Notes: generated by a model from the sequence alone, not told the origin. DNA of 20,988 nt from a virus (IMGVR_UViG_2778261588_000006:1-20988), one strand, 5' to 3'; counted from the stretch's first letter, positions 1 through 20,988 are shown. Translations and numbers: made by a program.

Positions 1-1248
1 ATGGCACTGAATATTCCATTCAGAAATGCGTACTATCGTTTTGCATCCAGTTACTCATTTCTCTTTTTTATTTCCTGGTCGCTGTGGTGGTCGTTATACG
101 CTATTTGGCTGAAAGGACATCTAGGGTTGACAGGGACGGAATTAGGTACACTTTATTCGGTCAACCAGTTTACCAGCATTCTATTTATGATGTTCTACGG
201 CATCGTTCAGGATAAACTCGGTCTGAAGAAACCGCTCATCTGGTGTATGAGTTTCATCCTGGTCTTGACCGGACCGTTTATGATTTACGTTTATGAACCG
301 TTACTGCAAAGCAATTTTTCTGTAGGTCTAATTCCGGGGGCGCTATTTTTTGGCTTGGGGTATCTGGCGGGATGCGGTTTGCTTGATAGCTTCACCGAAA
401 AAATGGCGCGAAATTTTCATTTCGAATATGGAACAGCGCGCGCCTGGGGATCTTTTGGCTATGCTATTGGCGCGTTCTTTGCCGGCATATTTTTTAGTAT
501 CAGTCCCCATATCAACTTCTGGTTGGTCTCGCTATTTGGCGCTGTATTTATGATGATCAACATGCGTTTTAAAGATAAGGATCACCAGTGCGTAGCGGCA
601 GATGCGGGAGGGGTAAAAAAAGAGGATTTTATCGCAGTTTTCAAGGATCGAAACTTCTGGGTTTTCGTCATATTTATTGTGGGGACGTGGTCTTTCTATA
701 ACATTTTTGATCAACAACTTTTTCCTGTCTTTTATGCAGGTTTATTCGAATCACACGATGTAGGAACGCGCCTGTATGGTTATCTCAACTCATTCCAGGT
801 GGTACTCGAAGCGCTGTGCATGGCGATTATTCCTTTCTTTGTGAATCGGGTAGGGCCAAAAAATGCATTACTTATCGGAGTTGTGATTATGGCGTTGCGT
901 ATCCTTTCCTGCGCGCTGTTCGTTAACCCCTGGATTATTTCATTAGTGAAGTTGTTACATGCCATTGAGGTTCCACTTTGTGTCATATCCGTCTTCAAAT
1001 ACAGCGTGGCAAACTTTGATAAGCGCCTGTCGTCGACGATCTTTCTGATTGGTTTTCAAATTGCCAGTTCGCTTGGGATTGTGCTGCTTTCAACGCCGAC
1101 TGGGATACTCTTTGACCACGCAGGCTACCAGACAGTTTTCTTCGCAATTTCGGGTATTGTCTGCCTGATGTTGCTATTTGGCATTTTCTTCTTGAGTAAA
1201 AAACGCGAGCAAATAGTTATGGAAACGCCTGTACCTTCAGCAATATAG
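1..1248 (+). CDS. cscB: MFS oligosaccharide:H+ symporter of the LacY family (sucrose permease-like), host gene
   Basis: 415-aa ORF starting at window base 1; 12-TM-like hydrophobic profile; LacY-family motifs (DKLGLKK, NFHFEYGTARAWG, FDQQLF, GPKNALL, FKY). Recognised from memory as CscB-like, not searched. Confidence 0.8.
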   Translation: MALNIPFRNAYYRFASSYSFLFFISWSLWWSLYAIWLKGHLGLTGTELGTLYSVNQFTSILFMMFYGIVQDKLGLKKPLIWCMSFILVLTGPFMIYVYEPLLQSNFSVGLIPGALFFGLGYLAGCGLLDSFTEKMARNFHFEYGTARAWGSFGYAIGAFFAGIFFSISPHINFWLVSLFGAVFMMINMRFKDKDHQCVAADAGGVKKEDFIAVFKDRNFWVFVIFIVGTWSFYNIFDQQLFPVFYAGLFESHDVGTRLYGYLNSFQVVLEALCMAIIPFFVNRVGPKNALLIGVVIMALRILSCALFVNPWIISLVKLLHAIEVPLCVISVFKYSVANFDKRLSSTIFLIGFQIASSLGIVLLSTPTGILFDHAGYQTVFFAISGIVCLMLLFGIFFLSKKREQIVMETPVPSAI

Positions 1249-2839: not shown

Positions 2840-3747
2840 TTCACCTCCTGCGGCGGTTCTGGTAGCGGCATCCAGTGTGTGACATTGCTAATCAGACCAT
2901 ATTCATTAGTTTGAGGATGGTTGCCGTTATCGTCTCCGTATTTAAGACTCTCCATAAAGCCATAATGCCTATCACCATTAACGCTCACAAAGCCGTAATA
3001 AGCAGGTATAACGCCGATCTCACACGTAACCAGTAAAGGAAAACTAGTTCTCCAATTTAGCTCGCCGATTACAGGCATTCGCTCACTACAGCTTATCCAG
3101 CCATCCGGAGTTACCGGATAGTTGCCCGATAGCGCATTACGCAATCGCTCCAGCTTCACGTATTCCTGAACCCTGTTTCCGTCGCATGCCTGAAGCCATT
3201 GCGCAGCCTTTTGCGCATCAGTGTGAAAGGCACAAGTGCGACCGTCATCAAATTGCATTTCGTAGAGGTCAGCAACTTGTTCAAACTGCGTATGTTGTGA
3301 CTTGTAAGTTTGGCTTACAGGTTCGGCACCATGAAGCATGGCGTCGCTCCGCTCTATGCCATCCAGCGCGATTCGCAGTGCCTGAATTGTGGTAGAGCTA
3401 TCGTTTGGGGCTATTCCATATCTCTCGAATACAGCTAAATGGTTGCGCATAATCTCAGGCGTAAGCTCTTTGTAAGCATAAGCAAGAGGCTCTGATGCAT
3501 TATCCGGCACAACCGACGCAGGCGCGGCAGCATAAACAGGAATAACGTCCGCTTGCTCTTTATTGCTTTCATCCGTTAAAGCCCAGAATAATTTCCCGGC
3601 CGGATGTTTGAAAATATAAGCAACTGGATCTGCTTCCAGCGATGCCAGCGCAATTCGTGCCAGTTCCATTTGTTCGCCACGGGTAAGCCCGTTTTCAAGC
3701 GTGGATTTAATGAACAATTCGATACGTTCTTTAGTGATAGCGCTCAT
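2836..3747 (-). CDS. DUF551-domain phage protein
   Basis: C-terminal WISCSERMP...THWMPLPEPP block typical of DUF551; start placed at MSAITK (3747) with AGGAG SD rather than the upstream in-frame ATG at 3789. Confidence 0.6.
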   Translation of the reverse strand: MSAITKERIELFIKSTLENGLTRGEQMELARIALASLEADPVAYIFKHPAGKLFWALTDESNKEQADVIPVYAAAPASVVPDNASEPLAYAYKELTPEIMRNHLAVFERYGIAPNDSSTTIQALRIALDGIERSDAMLHGAEPVSQTYKSQHTQFEQVADLYEMQFDDGRTCAFHTDAQKAAQWLQACDGNRVQEYVKLERLRNALSGNYPVTPDGWISCSERMPVIGELNWRTSFPLLVTCEIGVIPAYYGFVSVNGDRHYGFMESLKYGDDNGNHPQTNEYGLISNVTHWMPLPEPPQEVK

Positions 3748-11731: not shown

Positions 11732-12376
11732 ATGACATACGAAAATGACAAATTCCAGGTTCTGAAGAGCATGAAGGTGCCAGATGATTTTAAATCAAAT
11801 GGCTTTGTTTATGTGCTTTCGAATGAGTGCATGCCAGGAATTTATAAGATTGGGATGACTAAGCATTCACCAGAAGTTAGGGCTAAAGAAATTTCAGCCT
11901 CTACTGGCGTTCCTAAGCCATTTAAGGTGATAGCAGCCTTTCATTCAAATAATCCCGCATCAGATGAAAAACTCATTCATAAAGCCTTTGCAAAAGAGAG
12001 GCTTAGTGATAATCGAGAGTTTTTCAAGCTTGAAGATAATGATCTTTCTGAATCTCTAAATGAAATAAGGGCGCTGGTTGGCCCTGAACGAAATGGCGAG
12101 ACGGCAGAATACGCAATTTACGACTCATTCATTTCTTTTCGCCATGAAAATGAGCTTGATCTTAATGAGGAGCTTATAGAGCAAGGTCTGGGTAGTGTAG
12201 TTGGTCATCTTCCTGCGGTGAAAAATTTCCTTATTCGCGCCGGAATTGATTACGCGAAGCAACTGATAAGCAAATATAACTCATCGATAGTTATTAATAC
12301 AGATGGCAGTGTGGTGATGGTTAAGTCTCTTGAAGCCCAATGCTTTGATGCGGAGGTTGGAAATGAGCCTTGCTGA
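11732..12376 (+). CDS. T5orf172 (GIY-YIG-like nuclease) domain protein, 214 aa
   Basis: N-terminal GFVYVLSNECMPGIYKIGMT...EVRAKE matches the T5orf172/GIY-YIG pattern; CAGGAG SD; stop overlaps the O start. Confidence 0.65.
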   Translation: MTYENDKFQVLKSMKVPDDFKSNGFVYVLSNECMPGIYKIGMTKHSPEVRAKEISASTGVPKPFKVIAAFHSNNPASDEKLIHKAFAKERLSDNREFFKLEDNDLSESLNEIRALVGPERNGETAEYAIYDSFISFRHENELDLNEELIEQGLGSVVGHLPAVKNFLIRAGIDYAKQLISKYNSSIVINTDGSVVMVKSLEAQCFDAEVGNEPC

Positions 12377-15724: not shown

Positions 15725-15893
15725 TCCATCCCAATCTCTTCAATACCAGAAAGAAAGCGTCGAGCGGGCTTTAACGTGCGCTAACTGCGGTCAGAAGCTG
15801 CATGTGCTGGAAGTTCACGTGTGCTCCGATTGCTGCGCAGAACTGATGAGCGATCCGAATAGCTCAATGTACGAGGAAGAAGACGATGAATGA
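15717..15893 (+). CDS. ninF: NinF
   Basis: [36 protein letters not shown]... matches lambda NinF. Confidence 0.8.
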   Translation: MLSPSQSLQYQKESVERALTCANCGQKLHVLEVHVCSDCCAELMSDPNSSMYEEEDDE

Positions 15894-16608
15894 GTTAATA
15901 AATGGCAATGCCATCAAAATGACAAGCATTGAAATCGCTGAGTTGGTGGGTAAGCGTCATGACAATGTGAAACGTACCATCGAAACGCTGGCTAAAAATG
16001 GTGTTATCCGGCTTCCTCAAATTGAGGTTTCCGAAAGAATCAATAACTTAGGGTTCAATGTTCAGTACGAGCATTACGTCTTCGAAGGCGAACAAGGTAA
16101 GCGCGACAGCATTATTGTCGTTGCCCAGTTGTCGCCGGAATTCACCGCTCGTCTTGTTGACCGTTGGCGAGAGCTTGAAGAAACTGCGGTTAATATCCCC
16201 AAAACGCTACCAGAAGCGTTGCGCCTTGCTGCTGATCTTGCTGAGCAGAAAATGCAACTGGAAAACCAGCTCGCAATTGCCGCACCTAAAGTTGAGTTTG
16301 CCGATCGAGTTGGCGAAGCCAGCGGAATTTTGATTGGAAACTTTGCAAAGGTTGTTGGAATTGGTCCAAACAAACTGTTTGCGTGGATGCGCGATCACAA
16401 AATCCTTATTGCTTCAGGTTCCCGGCGCAATGTGCCAATGCAGGAATATATGGATCGCGGCTATTTCACAGTGAAAGAAACAGCGGTCAACACAAATCAC
16501 GGAATACAGATATCGTTCACCACAAAAATCACCGGTCGTGGTCAACAGTGGCTGACCAGAAAGCTGCTCGATAACGGAATGCTGAAAGTAACAGGGGAGG
16601 CTGCTTAA
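15886..16608 (+). CDS. Antirepressor (Rha-type N-terminal domain + ANT/KilAC C-terminal domain)
   Basis: N-terminal MTSIEIAELVGKRHDNVKRTIE (Rha-like) and C-terminal EFADRVGEASG...FAKVVGIGPNKLFAWMRDHKIL (Ant-like); ATGA overlap with ninF. Confidence 0.75.
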   Translation: MNELINGNAIKMTSIEIAELVGKRHDNVKRTIETLAKNGVIRLPQIEVSERINNLGFNVQYEHYVFEGEQGKRDSIIVVAQLSPEFTARLVDRWRELEETAVNIPKTLPEALRLAADLAEQKMQLENQLAIAAPKVEFADRVGEASGILIGNFAKVVGIGPNKLFAWMRDHKILIASGSRRNVPMQEYMDRGYFTVKETAVNTNHGIQISFTTKITGRGQQWLTRKLLDNGMLKVTGEAA

Positions 16609-17257: not shown

Positions 17258-17442
17258 ACGCCACAATTCAAACGATACCAGAGCTTCTTATCCAGACACG
17301 AGGCAATCAGACCGAAGTGGCGAGGATGCTTTCCTGCGCAAGAGGAACAGTGCTCAAGTACAACCGAGACAGCAAAGGCGAGCGTCATGTAATAGTTAAC
17401 GGCGTCCTGATGGTCAAACAAGGAAAGAGGGGAAGACGATGA
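17254..17442 (+). CDS. ninH: NinH-like protein
   Basis: IPELLIQTRGNQTEVARMLSCARGTVLKY...VNGVLMV parallels lambda NinH. Confidence 0.7.
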   Translation: MNATIQTIPELLIQTRGNQTEVARMLSCARGTVLKYNRDSKGERHVIVNGVLMVKQGKRGRR

Positions 17443-17957
17443 GCATAAGAGAACTAAACCTCACCAAAGAGCAGCACGAGTGGCTGAATGGCTGGCTTGA
17501 ACTGTGGGGCGCATGGGTTTATTCAGGTCGACTGGAAAAGCGCATGAGCAGCGTAATAGCGAAGTTCATGGAGAGCGTAGAGCCGGGAAGAGTTATGACA
17601 AGGCCAATGTGTAATGATGATGATGGAATGTTGATTTCTCAGGTCGTCGATTCCGTCATGTGCATTGACAAGAAAGCCTTTGGCATCCTCCTCAGCTACT
17701 ACGCTCATGGTTCATCTAAGCGAGCAATTGCATCCTACTATCACGCGACTGCAAAGCCACGCAAGATGTGTGGACGTGGTGGCGAGGGATGGAGAAAACC
17801 TTCACTGGCAACCTGTAGAAACGAAATTGACGACATCCTGAAAGCGTCATTATTTGTTTTATACCAGCCAATGCAAAATGCTTTCAAAATGCGTAAACGT
17901 GTTGAGAAAGTTAAGCATGTTGCTGTTAAAAGCCTTGACATGCAATTAGCCATTTAG
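17439..17957 (+). CDS. Q: Late-gene antiterminator Q (QuuD / non-lambda Q family)
   Basis: Positioned between ninH and the lysis cassette; WGAW and RPMCNDDD motifs resemble QuuD-type Q as recalled; unlike lambda Q. Confidence 0.6.
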   Translation: MSIRELNLTKEQHEWLNGWLELWGAWVYSGRLEKRMSSVIAKFMESVEPGRVMTRPMCNDDDGMLISQVVDSVMCIDKKAFGILLSYYAHGSSKRAIASYYHATAKPRKMCGRGGEGWRKPSLATCRNEIDDILKASLFVLYQPMQNAFKMRKRVEKVKHVAVKSLDMQLAI

Positions 17958-17964
17958 CCATAAT
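17935..17964 (+). promoter_or_regulatory. Candidate late promoter PR' (-35 TTGACA 17935-17940; -10 CATAAT 17959-17964, 18-bp spacer)
   Basis: Consensus -35 and near-consensus -10 straddling the Q stop codon, where lambdoid late promoters lie. Confidence 0.35.
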
Positions 17965-17973
17965 TAGAAGGTA

Positions 17974-18017
17974 AGCTGCCGTTAGTGACTCTTAAGTTGC
18001 AACGGTGGCTTTTTTTG
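17974..18017 (+). terminator. Candidate tR'-like intrinsic terminator (stem 17974-17983 / 18001-18010, then T7 run)
   Basis: About 10-bp stem (two G-U pairs) with large loop followed by TTTTTTTGTTTG; about 35 nt downstream of the candidate PR' start. Confidence 0.35.
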
Positions 18018-18040
18018 TTTGCACAACAGGTAAGAGCATT

Positions 18041-18090
18041 GCGCGCCTGACGAGTCCATGAGGGACGAAACGCATTAGCGTCGCGCGGAG
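18041..18090 (+). ncRNA. Hammerhead self-cleaving ribozyme motif (type I topology)
   Basis: Core CUGACGA 18047-18053; stem II GUCC 18054-57 / GGAC 18063-66 (loop AUGAG, G10.1-C11.1 pair); GAA 18067-69; stem III ACGC 18070-73 / GCGU 18078-81 (loop AUUA, A15.1-U16.1 pair); cleavage triplet GUC ending at C 18082; stem I CGCGC 18042-46 / GCGCG 18083-87. Every invariant core position is satisfied. Confidence 0.6.
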
Positions 18091-18532
18091 TATCCCCAGC
18101 CGGGGAATAACTGGATACCAGGGGAGACAACCCTAAGCGCATTTACGAGTGTGTTTAGGGCGTGGGTCGGCAATGACTCCCTGTGCAGCCGACATCTGGC
18201 CCGGCAACATACAGTGCTCTTTCCGTTGTGCTGAATTAAGCGAATACCGGAAGCAGAACCGGATCACCAAATGCGTACAGGCGTCATCGCCGCCCAGCAA
18301 CAGCACAACCCAAACTGAGCCGTAGCCACTGGCTATCCTGAATTCATCAGTGATAGTTATGCTGCGGCCTTCTACACATGACCTTCGTGAAAGCGGGTGG
18401 CAAGAAGTTGCGCTAACAACCTCCTGCCGTTTTGCCCGTGCATATCGGTCACGAACAAATCTGATTACTAAACACAGTAGCCTGGATTTGTTCTATCAGT
18501 AATCGACCTTATTCCTAATTAAATAGAGCAAA

Positions 18533-18548
18533 TCCCCTTATTGGGGGT
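18533..18548 (+). promoter_or_regulatory. sdi-like stem-loop (CCCC-TTATT-GGGGG) upstream of the S dual start
   Basis: Hairpin immediately 5' of ATG-AAG-ATG, as in lambda where it sets the S107/S105 ratio. Confidence 0.55.
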
Positions 18549-18553
18549 AAGAC

Positions 18554-18877
18554 ATGAAGATGCCAGAAAAACATGACCTGTTGGCCGCCATTCTCGCGGC
18601 AAAGGAACAAGGCATCGGGGCAATCCTTGCGTTTGCAATGGCGTACCTTCGCGGCAGATATAATGGCGGTGCGTTTACAAAAACAGTAATCGACGCAACG
18701 ATGTGCGCCATTATCGCCTGGTTCATTCGTGACCTTCTCGACTTCGCCGGACTAAGTAGCAATCTCGCTTATATAACGAGCGTGTTCATCGGCTACATCG
18801 GCACTGACTCGATTGGTTCGCTTATCAAACGCTTCGCTGCTAAAAAAGCCGGAGTAGAAGATGGTGGAAATCAATAA
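18554..18877 (+). CDS. S: Holin S (class I, dual-start S107/S105)
   Basis: [39 protein letters not shown]... is essentially lambda S as recalled; Met1-Lys2-Met3 dual start. Confidence 0.95.
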
Positions 18878-19337
18878 TCAACGTAAGGCGTTCCTCGATA
18901 TGCTGGCGTGGTCAGAGGGAACTGATAACGGACGGCAGAAAACCAGAAATCATGGTTATGACGTCATTGTAGGCGGAGAGCTATTCACTGATTACTCAGA
19001 TCACCCTCGCAAACTTGTCACGCTAAACCCAAAACTCAAATCAACAGCAGCCGGTCGCTATCAGCTTCTTTCCCGTTGGTGGGATGCCTACCGCAAGCAG
19101 CTTGGCCTGAAAGACTTCTCTCCGAAAAGCCAGGACGCTGTTGCACTGCAGCAGATTAAAGAGCGTGGCGCTTTACCGATGATTGATCGTGGCGATATCC
19201 GTCAGGCTATCGATCGTTGCAGCAATATCTGGGCTTCATTACCCGGTGCAGGTTACGGTCAGTATGAACATAAAATCGGTGACCTGATTGCCCGGTTTAA
19301 AGAGGCTGGCGGGGTGGTAAATGAAGCTGAGCTATAA
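18861..19337 (+). CDS. R: Endolysin R (lytic transglycosylase)
   Basis: [39 protein letters not shown]... matches lambda R over most of its length; the C-terminal ~20 aa differ. Confidence 0.95.
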
Positions 19338-19713
19338 GCTGGTTATCGCTGCTTTCTTCGTGACTGTCATCGGTTCTTTCACATGGTCTGCCAGCCACTA
19401 CTACAGCAAATATCAGCACGAAAAGAAACGTGCTAATGAGGCTGTACGAAATGCTGAATCAGCAACTGCCATTACCAATAACGTCCTGCAATCACTACAA
19501 ATCGTCAATACAGTTCTGGAGGCTAACCAGTATGCAAAACAGCAGATCGCACTGGAGTCACAGAGAACCCAGGAAGATATCAAAGGGGCTGTTGCGGATG
19601 ATGATTGTGCTGTACGTCCTGTGCCTGCTGCCGCTGCTGACAGGTTGCGGAAGTACGCGAACAGTTTACGTGCCGGTTCCGGCGGTACCGCTGCCAACAA
19701 GCCTGACCACTGA
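19321..19713 (+). CDS. Rz: Rz-like inner-membrane spanin (i-spanin)
   Basis: N-terminal TM (LVIAAFFVTVIGSF), coiled-coil body, directly after R with 17-nt overlap; not lambda Rz sequence. Confidence 0.6.
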   Translation: MKLSYKLVIAAFFVTVIGSFTWSASHYYSKYQHEKKRANEAVRNAESATAITNNVLQSLQIVNTVLEANQYAKQQIALESQRTQEDIKGAVADDDCAVRPVPAAAADRLRKYANSLRAGSGGTAANKPDH

Positions 19714-19855
19714 AACGCCCCAGCCAGTCATTCCCGACCCGCTGACCTATGGGGCCAGTCTGGATCTGAATGTGAGCCTGCTTTCGGCGCTGGGCCAGTG
19801 CAACATCGACAAGGCCAGTATCAGGAAGATAGAAACGTCACGCAACTCACAGTAG
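19598..19855 (+). CDS. Rz1: Rz1-like outer-membrane lipoprotein spanin (o-spanin), overlapped architecture
   Basis: +1-frame ORF inside Rz with lipobox LLTGC and Pro-rich mature region; extends 142 nt past the Rz stop. Confidence 0.6.
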   Translation: MMIVLYVLCLLPLLTGCGSTRTVYVPVPAVPLPTSLTTETPQPVIPDPLTYGASLDLNVSLLSALGQCNIDKASIRKIETSRNSQ

Positions 19856-20080
19856 CCATTACAAAGCTCATCTGCGGGTGGGCTTGATAATGAAACCGGA
19901 ATTTATTCTGGGCAACCAGTTACGGCAGTACCACGAAACAACCCAAGCCAGTAAGTGGGGAAATAACACTGGCAGCCACTGAAAGATGAACCTCCTGCCT
20001 TATGGCAAAAAAGATTCTTTGTGGTGGCGGACTGATGGAAAGACATCCTAATCAAGCAACCACTCTACAGGGTCATAATT

Positions 20081-20461
20081 ATGAACGACCAGCAAATCGA
20101 AAAAGAAATCGTTGAGAAAGGCAAAACTGCACCGCGAATCACCCCGCAGCACATCGAAGACGTGATTAAAAGCGAGCATTACTTTACTGCTTATGATGGA
20201 CGAAATGGTGCCATTTCCAGCAACGAATATTGTGGCAGGGAAAAACCAGAAGAAGGCGATCGTGATTTATCACCATTGAAGTTGCTCACTTTCTGCGTAC
20301 TGGTGCTGAAGAATGGCTTCACCGTCACCGGAGAGAGTGCCTGTGCAAGCCCGGAAAACTTTGATGTAGAAATTGGTCGGAAGATTGCCCGGCAGAATGC
20401 TGTAAACAAAATCTGGATGCTCGAAGGTTACTTGCTGAAGCAGAAGCTAAGCGAACAGTAG
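20081..20461 (+). CDS. Hypothetical phage protein (126 aa), possibly Gp49-like
   Basis: Isolated ORF after the lysis cassette, flanked on both sides by a repeated linker motif; family guess weak. Confidence 0.5.
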   Translation: MNDQQIEKEIVEKGKTAPRITPQHIEDVIKSEHYFTAYDGRNGAISSNEYCGREKPEEGDRDLSPLKLLTFCVLVLKNGFTVTGESACASPENFDVEIGRKIARQNAVNKIWMLEGYLLKQKLSEQ

Positions 20462-20564
20462 TTATTACAAAAGCCATTCCCTACAGAGTGGCTTTGATAA
20501 TGGCTTATACCCTACACGGGATAACTTAACTGATATCCCTTTTAACGGATAAACGGAGCCAACA

Positions 20565-20807
20565 ATGGCAGAGATTATTCCCATGACTGAAGAACAGAAA
20601 TTCAAGTTAGAAATTTACCGACTGCTATCTAAGAACAATTCAGCGGCAGAGGAAGCTTTTGCATTCATTGGTGCTGACCAACTGAAACTGGAATTGTTCA
20701 AGTTGCACTACAACGATGGCGGTGCAAATCCAGACTTCACATCTCGCACTATCGAAGCGGTGCGTAAATCGAAGGAAGCGTTAGACCTGTTCACTACCGG
20801 AGCATGA
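20565..20807 (+). CDS. Hypothetical small helical protein (80 aa)
   Basis: ORF with GGAG-containing leader; stop overlaps the next start. Confidence 0.45.
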   Translation: MAEIIPMTEEQKFKLEIYRLLSKNNSAAEEAFAFIGADQLKLELFKLHYNDGGANPDFTSRTIEAVRKSKEALDLFTTGA

Positions 20808-20808
20808 T

Positions 20809-20988
20809 GTGAGCCGCGTAATCAATTTGGGTAAGGAGAAGAAATTCCCAATTACTCAAGAGCTATACGAGCGGCTGGAAAGCGTCATCCATGATTACGA
20901 TGGCGAAATCAGTTTATGCGAGGCGATTGGCACACTCGAATTGCTGAAGCAGTCACTGATTGAAGGCGCGAAAGAGTCATCAACCTGA
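20809..20988 (+). CDS. Hypothetical small protein (59 aa, GTG start), ends at last base of window
   Basis: GTG 1 nt after the upstream TGA with GGAG 6 nt upstream; under the track length cutoff. Confidence 0.3.
   Translation: MSRVINLGKEKKFPITQELYERLESVIHDYDGEISLCEAIGTLELLKQSLIEGAKESST

Follow-up and report, generated by a model that had tools for sequence, protein, structure and literature searches.

An Acb4-family gene and two independently assorting neighbours between the lysis and terminase genes of a P22-like prophage

In phage lambda, the accessory gene bor occupies the stretch between the lysis and packaging genes, is encoded on the opposite strand and yields a lipoprotein in lysogens. 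Near the packaging genes of P22-like phages, other small genes are known, such as genes 66, 67 and 68 of Shigella phage Sf6 and orf80 and orf59c of P22; the latter two belong to a model phage that is among the best studied, evolve under purifying selection and are without a published function. Our searches with the terms DUF2560, orf80, orf59c, hkbM/hkbN and the BTP1 locus tags found no functional description in the searchable literature. A different body of work concerns the Pfam family PF13876, which has been equated with the Acb4 family of anti-CBASS sponges and has 1,331 members (Chang et al., 10.1101/2024.12.30.630793). Acb4 of Bacillus phage SPO1 is a tetrameric sponge with four 3'3'-cGAMP bound (Kd about 157 nM); it has cUA and other isomers of cGAMP as further ligands and blocks CBASS (10.1101/2024.12.30.630793). 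In the same study, 3'3'-cGAMP was bound by all eight of the diverse homologues that were purified, 3'3'-cAA was bound as well by homologues from phages of Gram-negative hosts, the family fold was derived from dsRNA-binding domains, and the extensions of some members were proposed to add functions (10.1101/2024.12.30.630793). For a fusion of Acb4 with Tad2, blocking of CBASS in vivo has been described (Tal et al.).

The DNA analysed here is a stretch of 20,988 nucleotides (IMGVR_UViG_2778261588_000006:1-20988), referred to as the window. The original prediction had placed three small plus-strand ORFs between the lysis cassette and the expected packaging genes, and our ORF listing confirmed all three, at the predicted lengths, between the lysis genes and the packaging side of a P22-like prophage (Table 1). 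The window ends exactly with the stop codon of ORF3. In the prophage of E. coli CH4804, the closest contiguous relative, ORF3 is followed after 23 nt by the small terminase gene and then by genes for TerL, portal, scaffold and a P22-type capsid. The remainder of the window corresponds to an early region of the P22-like/lambdoid kind, encoding a Rad52-type recombinase, a CI-type repressor, replication protein O with a DnaC-like protein, RusA and Q, and no known RNA families or tRNAs were found in the window.

Table 1. Positions of the features discussed, counted from the first nucleotide of the window
Feature	Position	Strand	Description
Q gene	17439-17957	+	PF06530
Late promoter-like site, PR'-type	17935-17964	+	TTGACA-18-CATAAT, 11/12 matches, end of Q gene
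Lysis cassette	18554-19855	+	lambda-type holin, endolysin, Rz, Rz1 (Pfam and PHROG)
Holin	18554-18877	+	Phage_holin_3_1, 2.4e-30
Endolysin	18861-19337	+	phrog_90, 1.3e-62
Rz	19321-19713	+	Rz-like spanin phrog_214, 7e-46
Rz1	about 19598-19855	+	LysC/Rz1, 3.7e-18; overlaps Rz and extends beyond its end
Hairpin copy 1	19857-19892	+	ATTACAAA-stem-loop-GATAATG, directly 3' of Rz1 stop; -17.6 kcal/mol, z -2.7
Spacer	19893-20047	+	no coding assignment; conserved, 92-97% identity in relatives with or without ORF1 (blastn)
ORF1 cassette	20048-20460	+	413-bp block, present or absent as one unit (blastn)
ORF1	20081-20461	+	126 aa, ATG start
Hairpin copy 2	20460-20505	+	directly 3' of ORF1 stop, 60 nt upstream of ORF2; -20.6 kcal/mol, z -5.1
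ORF2	20565-20807	+	80 aa, ATG start; stop TGA 20805-20807
ORF3	20809-20988	+	59 aa, GTG start

All three ORFs matched Pfam or PHROG families, with E values from 1e-34 to 1e-43, and comparison with the Sf6 and P22 orthologues gave dN/dS ratios of 0.13 for ORF1, 0.25-0.28 for ORF2 and 0.11 for ORF3. With such family matches and ratios spanning 0.11-0.28, the three ORFs are real genes under purifying selection. They are orthologues of Sf6 genes 66, 67 and 68, and each belongs to a known family already catalogued in P22-like phages; related sequence of some kind is present in about half of the complete E. coli genomes. The description of all three as uncharacterised thus stands for ORF2 and ORF3, which correspond to P22 orf80 and orf59c, long known and without a described function, but not for ORF1, a member of PF13876 and thereby of the Acb4 family.

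ORF1 matched PF13876 ('N4 Gp49/Sf6 gene 66') along the whole profile (1-82), with an E value of 1.8e-34 and 118.6 bits against a cut-off of 27. It differs from Sf6 gp66 (Q716B1) at two residues, G3D and A96V, and Q716B1 is itself an entry in Table S3 of Chang et al. (10.1101/2024.12.30.630793). A direct phmmer search of the PDB with ORF1 found the Acb4 structure 9e4w at E 0.0096, and a profile of eleven family members found the same structure at E 8.3e-8. These similarities place ORF1 firmly in the Acb4/PF13876 family, the link between the Pfam family and Acb4 being already published. Proteins of the Sf6 gene 66 type, annotated as 'hypothetical' in many P22-like prophages of E. coli, Shigella and Salmonella, can accordingly be assigned to the Acb4 anti-CBASS family. 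By analogy with the studied members, ORF1 is predicted to be a cyclic-dinucleotide sponge, and its product would bind such ligands and help the phage to evade CBASS.

Alignment with SPO1 Acb4 showed that three of the ten contact residues, F48, F62 and I66, which form the stacking/hydrophobic pocket, are identical in ORF1, as is the G67-R68 motif. Two further contacts are conservatively changed (V56 to C and N63 to D), and in place of the five polar contacts K36, E49, Y57, T70 and K81, ORF1 has L, T, A, I and M, respectively. Since only three of the ten contacts are identical and five are replaced, the ligand range of the Sf6-type ORF1 may differ from that of SPO1 Acb4. A stronger form of this argument would make ORF1 an Acb4 protein by descent whose ligand or target is something other than the CBASS dinucleotides, either another nucleotide signal or RNA bound through the dsRBD-like fold. 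The replacement of five contacts, including the base-specific K36 and E49, points in that direction, as do an insertion of roughly 30 residues that is absent from SPO1 Acb4, the origin of the family fold in dsRNA-binding domains and the functions proposed for the extensions of some members. However, the pocket retains its aromatic and hydrophobic residues, eight of eight diverse homologues bound 3'3'-cGAMP (Chang et al., 10.1101/2024.12.30.630793) and the Acb4-Tad2 fusion was active against CBASS in vivo (Tal et al.), and we consider such a change of target quite improbable.

The boundaries of the segment carrying ORF1 could be defined precisely. A blastn comparison of the window with related loci showed that in five of them, one being phage N7, position 20047 of the window is joined to position 20461, with 1 nt between them, and the intervening 413 bp were present or absent as one unit. 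On the left, the cassette adjoins the conserved spacer, of which the part from 19922 to 20047 was also found in P22 and BTP1 (94.5-96.0% identical by blastn), where it is located after the rha gene; small ORFs inside the spacer had no family match. Across 80 related IMG/VR loci, the slot upstream of ORF2 held at least 15 gene families. The gene nearest upstream of ORF2 was an Acb4 homologue in 19 of these loci, a Rha-like regulator in 14 and simply Rz in 7, and the other occupants represented more than a dozen families, including KilA-N and Tad2-like proteins. For example, P22 and BTP1 have rha in the slot, with orf25 annotated in P22 and pid in BTP1, and phage Huey has, just upstream of Acb4, a protein of 166 aa whose domain is Tad2-like (PF11195, E 1.7e-24). 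The label 'anti-CRISPR protein' attached to the Huey homologues was not adopted, one of these proteins belonging to PF13876 (Acb4) and the other to PF11195 (Tad2-like).

The lysis/packaging junction of P22-like phages is therefore a hypervariable cargo slot and ORF1 is cargo in the form of a mobile cassette; given the precise 413-bp indel and the varied contents of the slot, the original prediction was right to regard this position as a cargo slot. The junction is a hotspot at which counter-defence cassettes (Acb4, Tad2-like) and regulator cassettes (Rha, KilA-N) are swapped, and an inventory of its contents should be useful for annotating prophages and for predicting which phages are able to overcome CBASS or Thoeris.

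A simple consensus scan detected a single sigma-70-like site upstream of the three-gene block, namely the PR'-type site at the end of the Q gene. The same type of scan found no promoter-like site between 17965 and 20988, and no plus-strand terminator-like site was found from the PR'-type site to 20988. The three genes would thus be expressed as part of the late operon, their late timing being deduced from the simple consensus scan only. In the reading that we consider probable, the block forms the accessory tail end of a prophage late operon of the P22-like (Lederbergvirus) type and is made up of three independent genes, of which ORF1 encodes an Acb4-type sponge. According to this proposal, a Q-dependent late promoter would read the three genes together with the lysis and head genes; the ORF1 product, by homology a presumed homotetramer with ligand pockets at the protomer interfaces, would bind 3'3'-cGAMP and related cyclic dinucleotides made by the CBASS cyclases of the host; and with the signal sequestered, the CBASS effector would stay inactive and the phage could complete its late phase.

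ORF2 matched PF10834 (DUF2560) with an E value of 5.5e-37 and 126.3 bits against a cut-off of 25, and corresponds to P22 Orf80, HK620 HkbM and Sf6 gp67. It is 100% identical to the protein of phage N7 and 77.5% identical to P22 Orf80. The AF2 model has four helices (pLDDT 78.7), and comparison of the model with known structures gave no consistent fold relative. DUF2560 is a small family, with 74 representatives among 1.84 billion proteins; none of these showed a genuine informative domain fusion, the long hits being repeat proteins or chimeras. ORF2 is thus a conserved protein, with a predicted four-helix fold, encoded at the head of the segment that directly precedes the terminase genes.

ORF3 matched only PHROG 3546 in the Pfam and PHROG searches (E 4.4e-43) and corresponds to Sf6 gp68, P22 Orf59c and HK620 HkbN, being 98% identical to the latter two. 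Its model, of medium confidence (pLDDT 71), has a strand-helix-helix fold that matches ribbon-helix-helix (RHH) DNA-binding proteins by fold only. Attempts at an RHH assignment at the sequence level failed: 25 members of the family gave no Pfam RHH match at E<=10, the PDB profile search gave no match, and hhalign against a hand-made RHH alignment yielded a probability of 2%, with the register correct. Going by the model, the product of ORF3 is most likely an RHH dimer that binds DNA or another partner, with DNA binding suggested by the fold; its net acidic charge counts against this assignment. The hairpin/palindrome elements of these loci occur irrespective of the presence of ORF3.

The original prediction further held that the last two genes are translationally coupled and could form a two-gene module, with toxin-antitoxin or phage exclusion as phenotypes to look for. 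Coupling is plausible, since the ORF2 stop codon lies 1 nt from the GTG of ORF3 and a GGAG motif is found 7 nt upstream of this GTG; this spacing, counted as 2 nt, is also kept in 20 of the 23 related loci that have both genes. The module itself did not survive the analysis of co-occurrence, for which we used 78 IMG/VR loci with ORF2 and sufficient flanking sequence. ORF1 and ORF3 were both absent from 41 of these loci, ORF3 was present without ORF1 in 17, ORF1 was present without ORF3 in 15, and both were present in 5, compared with 5.6 expected if they were independent. ORF3 therefore stands beside ORF2 in 22 of the 78 loci (28%), and ORF2 occurs without it in the other 56. In a phage collection, ORF2 was found in 140 records and ORF3 in 45. 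The arrangement also varies in other ways: in phage Bas106, only the last third of ORF2 is left, and a gene of 95 aa separates it from an intact ORF3; in three IMG/VR loci, about 300 nt separate the two genes; in Salmonella prophages, genes of 47 and 134 aa lie between ORF3 and TerS; and distant ORF3 homologues (47-49% identity) are found without ORF2, in a Providencia phage within the nin region and in Erwinia phage AH03 among small early-type genes. We conclude that ORF1, ORF2 and ORF3 are three independently assorting genes and not one module.

These data weigh heavily against a reading in which ORF3 would be an RHH antitoxin, ORF2 a helical toxin, and the pair a toxin-antitoxin or abortive-infection/exclusion module. 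In its favour, ORF2 and ORF3 lie side by side and are probably coupled in translation, and the fold predicted for ORF3 is that of many type II antitoxins (ParD, TacA, MazE, RelB). However, with ORF2 lacking ORF3 in 56 of the 78 loci, and an identical ORF2 in N7 directly followed by the terminase gene, a toxin would usually be without its antitoxin, or the reverse, and the pair is not tenable in these terms. The persistence of ORF3 beside the truncated ORF2 of Bas106, the loci with about 300 nt between the genes and the distant ORF3 homologues elsewhere in genomes without ORF2 argue in the same direction, as does the result of the consensus scan, in which the pair had no promoter of its own. 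Searches of Pfam, NCBIfam and PADLOC gave no toxin, antitoxin or defence match for either protein. On the grounds of co-occurrence and of these absent family matches we rejected the module, which appears extremely improbable.

A second reading would have ORF2, with or without ORF3, act with the small terminase as an accessory factor in the initiation of packaging, for example as an RHH protein that binds near pac. In P22-like phages from several genera, ORF2 is always found directly upstream of the terminase region, and in loci of the N7 type the terminase gene starts 2 nt after the ORF2 stop codon. Co-variation with the terminase is, however, not seen: both ORF2 alleles pair with all major downstream terminase types, and identical alleles are followed by at least four unrelated downstream gene types. 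ORF3 was present in 10 of 26 loci with a P22-type terminase, 9 of 25 with an Sf6-type and none of 18 with an N7-type terminase, and its absence from 16 of the P22-type and all 18 of the N7-type loci speaks against a part in packaging, as do the extra genes that separate it from the terminase gene in Salmonella prophages and its distant homologues in nin or early regions. Neither ORF2 nor ORF3 matched any packaging family in Pfam or PHROG, and no confident assignment to a structural or packaging protein, which would have refuted the original prediction, was obtained. Since there is no co-variation with the terminase, and ORF3 is optional and movable, a packaging-accessory role is disfavoured, and we give it little credence, though it is conceivable for ORF2, whose position is constant.

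A third reading, suggested by the contents of the slot, takes the whole junction for an anti-defence island, with ORF2, ORF3 or both encoding additional counter-defence or host-takeover proteins and ORF3 perhaps acting as a small regulator comparable to Aca proteins from anti-CRISPR operons. Both genes are neighbours of anti-defence cargo of proven families (Acb4 here, Tad2-like and Acb4 in Huey), both encode small, acidic products, and ORF3 is an optional gene. In addition, the 95-aa gene inserted in Bas106 shares a domain that is fused to Tad2 and to Acb4 in PHROG families. On the other hand, ORF2 is nearly constant, whereas true cargo varies; ORF2 and ORF3 resemble neither Sequestins nor any other anti-defence or defence family searched in Pfam, NCBIfam and PADLOC; there is no separate promoter for a regulator to act upon; and the two sequences do not appear in the searchable supplementary tables of Tal et al. 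It is the neighbourhood alone that hints at a counter-defence role for ORF2 or ORF3, and we regard this role as rather unlikely. As a specific candidate of this kind, Sequestin-like sponges acting against Thoeris were rejected: neither protein matched PF21825 (Sequestin) at E<=0.1, and hhalign against 13 published Sequestins gave probabilities of 0.06% for ORF2 and 0.33% for ORF3.

The region between ORF1 and ORF2 contains a hairpin that recurs in the window. A pattern search found two matches, compared with none expected (Table 1). In related loci, the hairpin precedes ORF2 in 78 of 80 cases, and copy 2 lies at the left boundary, itself conserved, of the ORF2 module. Among 19 distinct variants, 93.6% of cells were paired, compared with 31-47% in slid controls, and compensatory changes were found in five pairs. 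The element had no Rfam match and no U-tract. We note, as a separate observation, that this conserved and covarying element is common to the 3' ends of Rz1 and ORF1. One may tentatively suppose, as a possibility of low probability, that Orf80 (DUF2560) and/or Orf59c represent a new late-expressed phage factor, combining an RHH DNA binder with a helical protein, that would counter host defence or modulate the start of headful packaging, and that the late transcript would contain, in the hairpin upstream of ORF2, a functional RNA element.

To what is already catalogued for these phages, our analysis makes modest additions, namely the boundaries of the ORF1 cassette, the inventory of the slot, the finding that the three genes are independent of one another, an RHH-like fold predicted for Orf59c and the conserved hairpin. 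Compared with lambda, the genes occupy the same kind of position as bor, that of accessory cargo between lysis and packaging genes; unlike bor, they are three genes on the strand of the late operon, with no promoter-like site of their own found and, as originally predicted, with no resemblance to Bor, since no Bor-family match was among the Pfam hits at E<=0.1. ORF3, when compared with RHH (MetJ/Arc/CopG) proteins such as TraM, CopG, ParD and TacA, has no detectable sequence relationship to them and is without an adjacent toxin, its own promoter or an identified operator. SPO1 Acb4 (9e4w), the founding member, belongs to the same Pfam family as ORF1, and both are small and phage-encoded, with the beta-sheet core and C-terminal helix aligning; unlike the SPO1 protein, to which it is 28% identical, ORF1 is 30 residues longer, with the insertion located between the N-terminal helices and strand 1, and it resides in the late operon of a temperate podovirus and not in a virulent Bacillus myovirus.

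The P22 genes orf80 and orf59c (BK000583) have the same arrangement as ORF2 and ORF3 (stop, 1 nt, GTG) and the same position, 23 nt upstream of gene 3, whereas the upstream slot of P22 has rha, orf25 and pid (the last annotated in the close relative BTP1) and no Acb4. Sf6 (AF547987) is different from the present locus in that its Rz/Rz1 are of another type, its gp68 has a different and longer C-terminus than ORF3 (63 aa), and its gp67 is only 79% identical to ORF2, which is here of the N7 type (100%). Nevertheless, Sf6 genes 66, 67 and 68 are like the three genes described here in order as well as in location, being the last genes of the late accessory region, just ahead of the gene for the small terminase, and the DNA of Sf6 is 93.5% identical to the window from 19907 to 20988, a segment matching the end of the Sf6 genome.

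A hairpin element follows two of the genes at this locus, and both conserved copies, one at the end of the spanin gene Rz1 and one at the end of ORF1 (the Acb4-family gene, a predicted cyclic-dinucleotide sponge), fit the pattern ATTACAAA...GATAATG. Copy 2 precedes ORF2 (DUF2560, P22 Orf80) in 78 of the 80 related IMG/VR loci that carry this gene. Compensatory base changes were found in the element: over 19 variants it is 93.6% paired, compared with 31-47% in slid controls, and five pairs covary. The hairpin lacks a U-tract and has no match in Rfam; it may act in the processing or stability of RNA, or else mark a recombination boundary. The spacer separating copy 1 from the ORF1 cassette matches no family and lacks any convincing ORF, yet shares 92-97% identity across relatives, whether ORF1 is present or absent. 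Part of it (19922-20047) lies directly 3' of rha in P22 and BTP1.

Positions of the features in the window and in related loci (L-numbers)
Feature	Location	Remarks
LacY/CscB-type sugar-proton symporter (first ORF), 415 aa	window 1-1248	ATG at base 1; PF01306, E 3.4e-193
T5orf172/MUG113-domain protein	window 11732-12376	between immunity region and replication gene O
Rha/KilAC antirepressor-type protein	window 15886-16608	in nin region
Leader, roughly 600 nt	window 17958-18553	late promoter to holin gene
Rz/Rz1 pair	window 19321-19855	
Hairpin copy 1	window 19857-19892	directly 3' of Rz1 stop codon
Non-coding-looking spacer, 155 nt	window 19893-20047	
Hairpin copy 2	window 20460-20505	directly 3' of ORF1 stop codon
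Tad2-like-domain protein, 166 aa	L002 (phage Huey) 1988-2488	PF11195 at C-terminal end; adjoins Huey Acb4
Stand-alone protein, 95 aa	L015 (phage Bas106) 2204-2491	inserted between ORF2 and ORF3
Extra genes, 47 and 134 aa	L098-L101 (Salmonella prophages) 3170-3717	between ORF3 homologue and small terminase gene

The 47- and 134-aa genes of the Salmonella prophages have no Pfam match, and their position, beyond the homologue of ORF3 (P22 Orf59c), means that the stretch downstream of ORF2 is a second insertion slot. The Bas106 protein is homologous to the N-terminal domain of the Huey Tad2-like protein, and in PHROG 9467 the same domain is joined to an Acb4 domain. On the reasoning that Tal et al. 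apply to fusions, this common domain is a candidate for a new signal-sequestering module.

Elsewhere in the prophage, the T5orf172/MUG113 and Rha/KilAC proteins look like further accessory cargo. The symporter ORF represents either host flank adjoining the prophage or carried cargo; a 'sucrose transport protein' is likewise annotated in the phage record vB_EcoP-611R6, and the interval from the symporter ORF to the early genes shows no integrase ORF of full length.

The Rz/Rz1 pair is of an uncommon type, with a detectable Rz homologue in only one of the 80 related loci (59% identity); Rz1 starts within Rz, at about 19598, and extends 142 nt beyond its end. The leader upstream of the holin gene contains no tRNA genes; in Sf6 and BTP1 this position is occupied by tRNA-Asn and tRNA-Thr.
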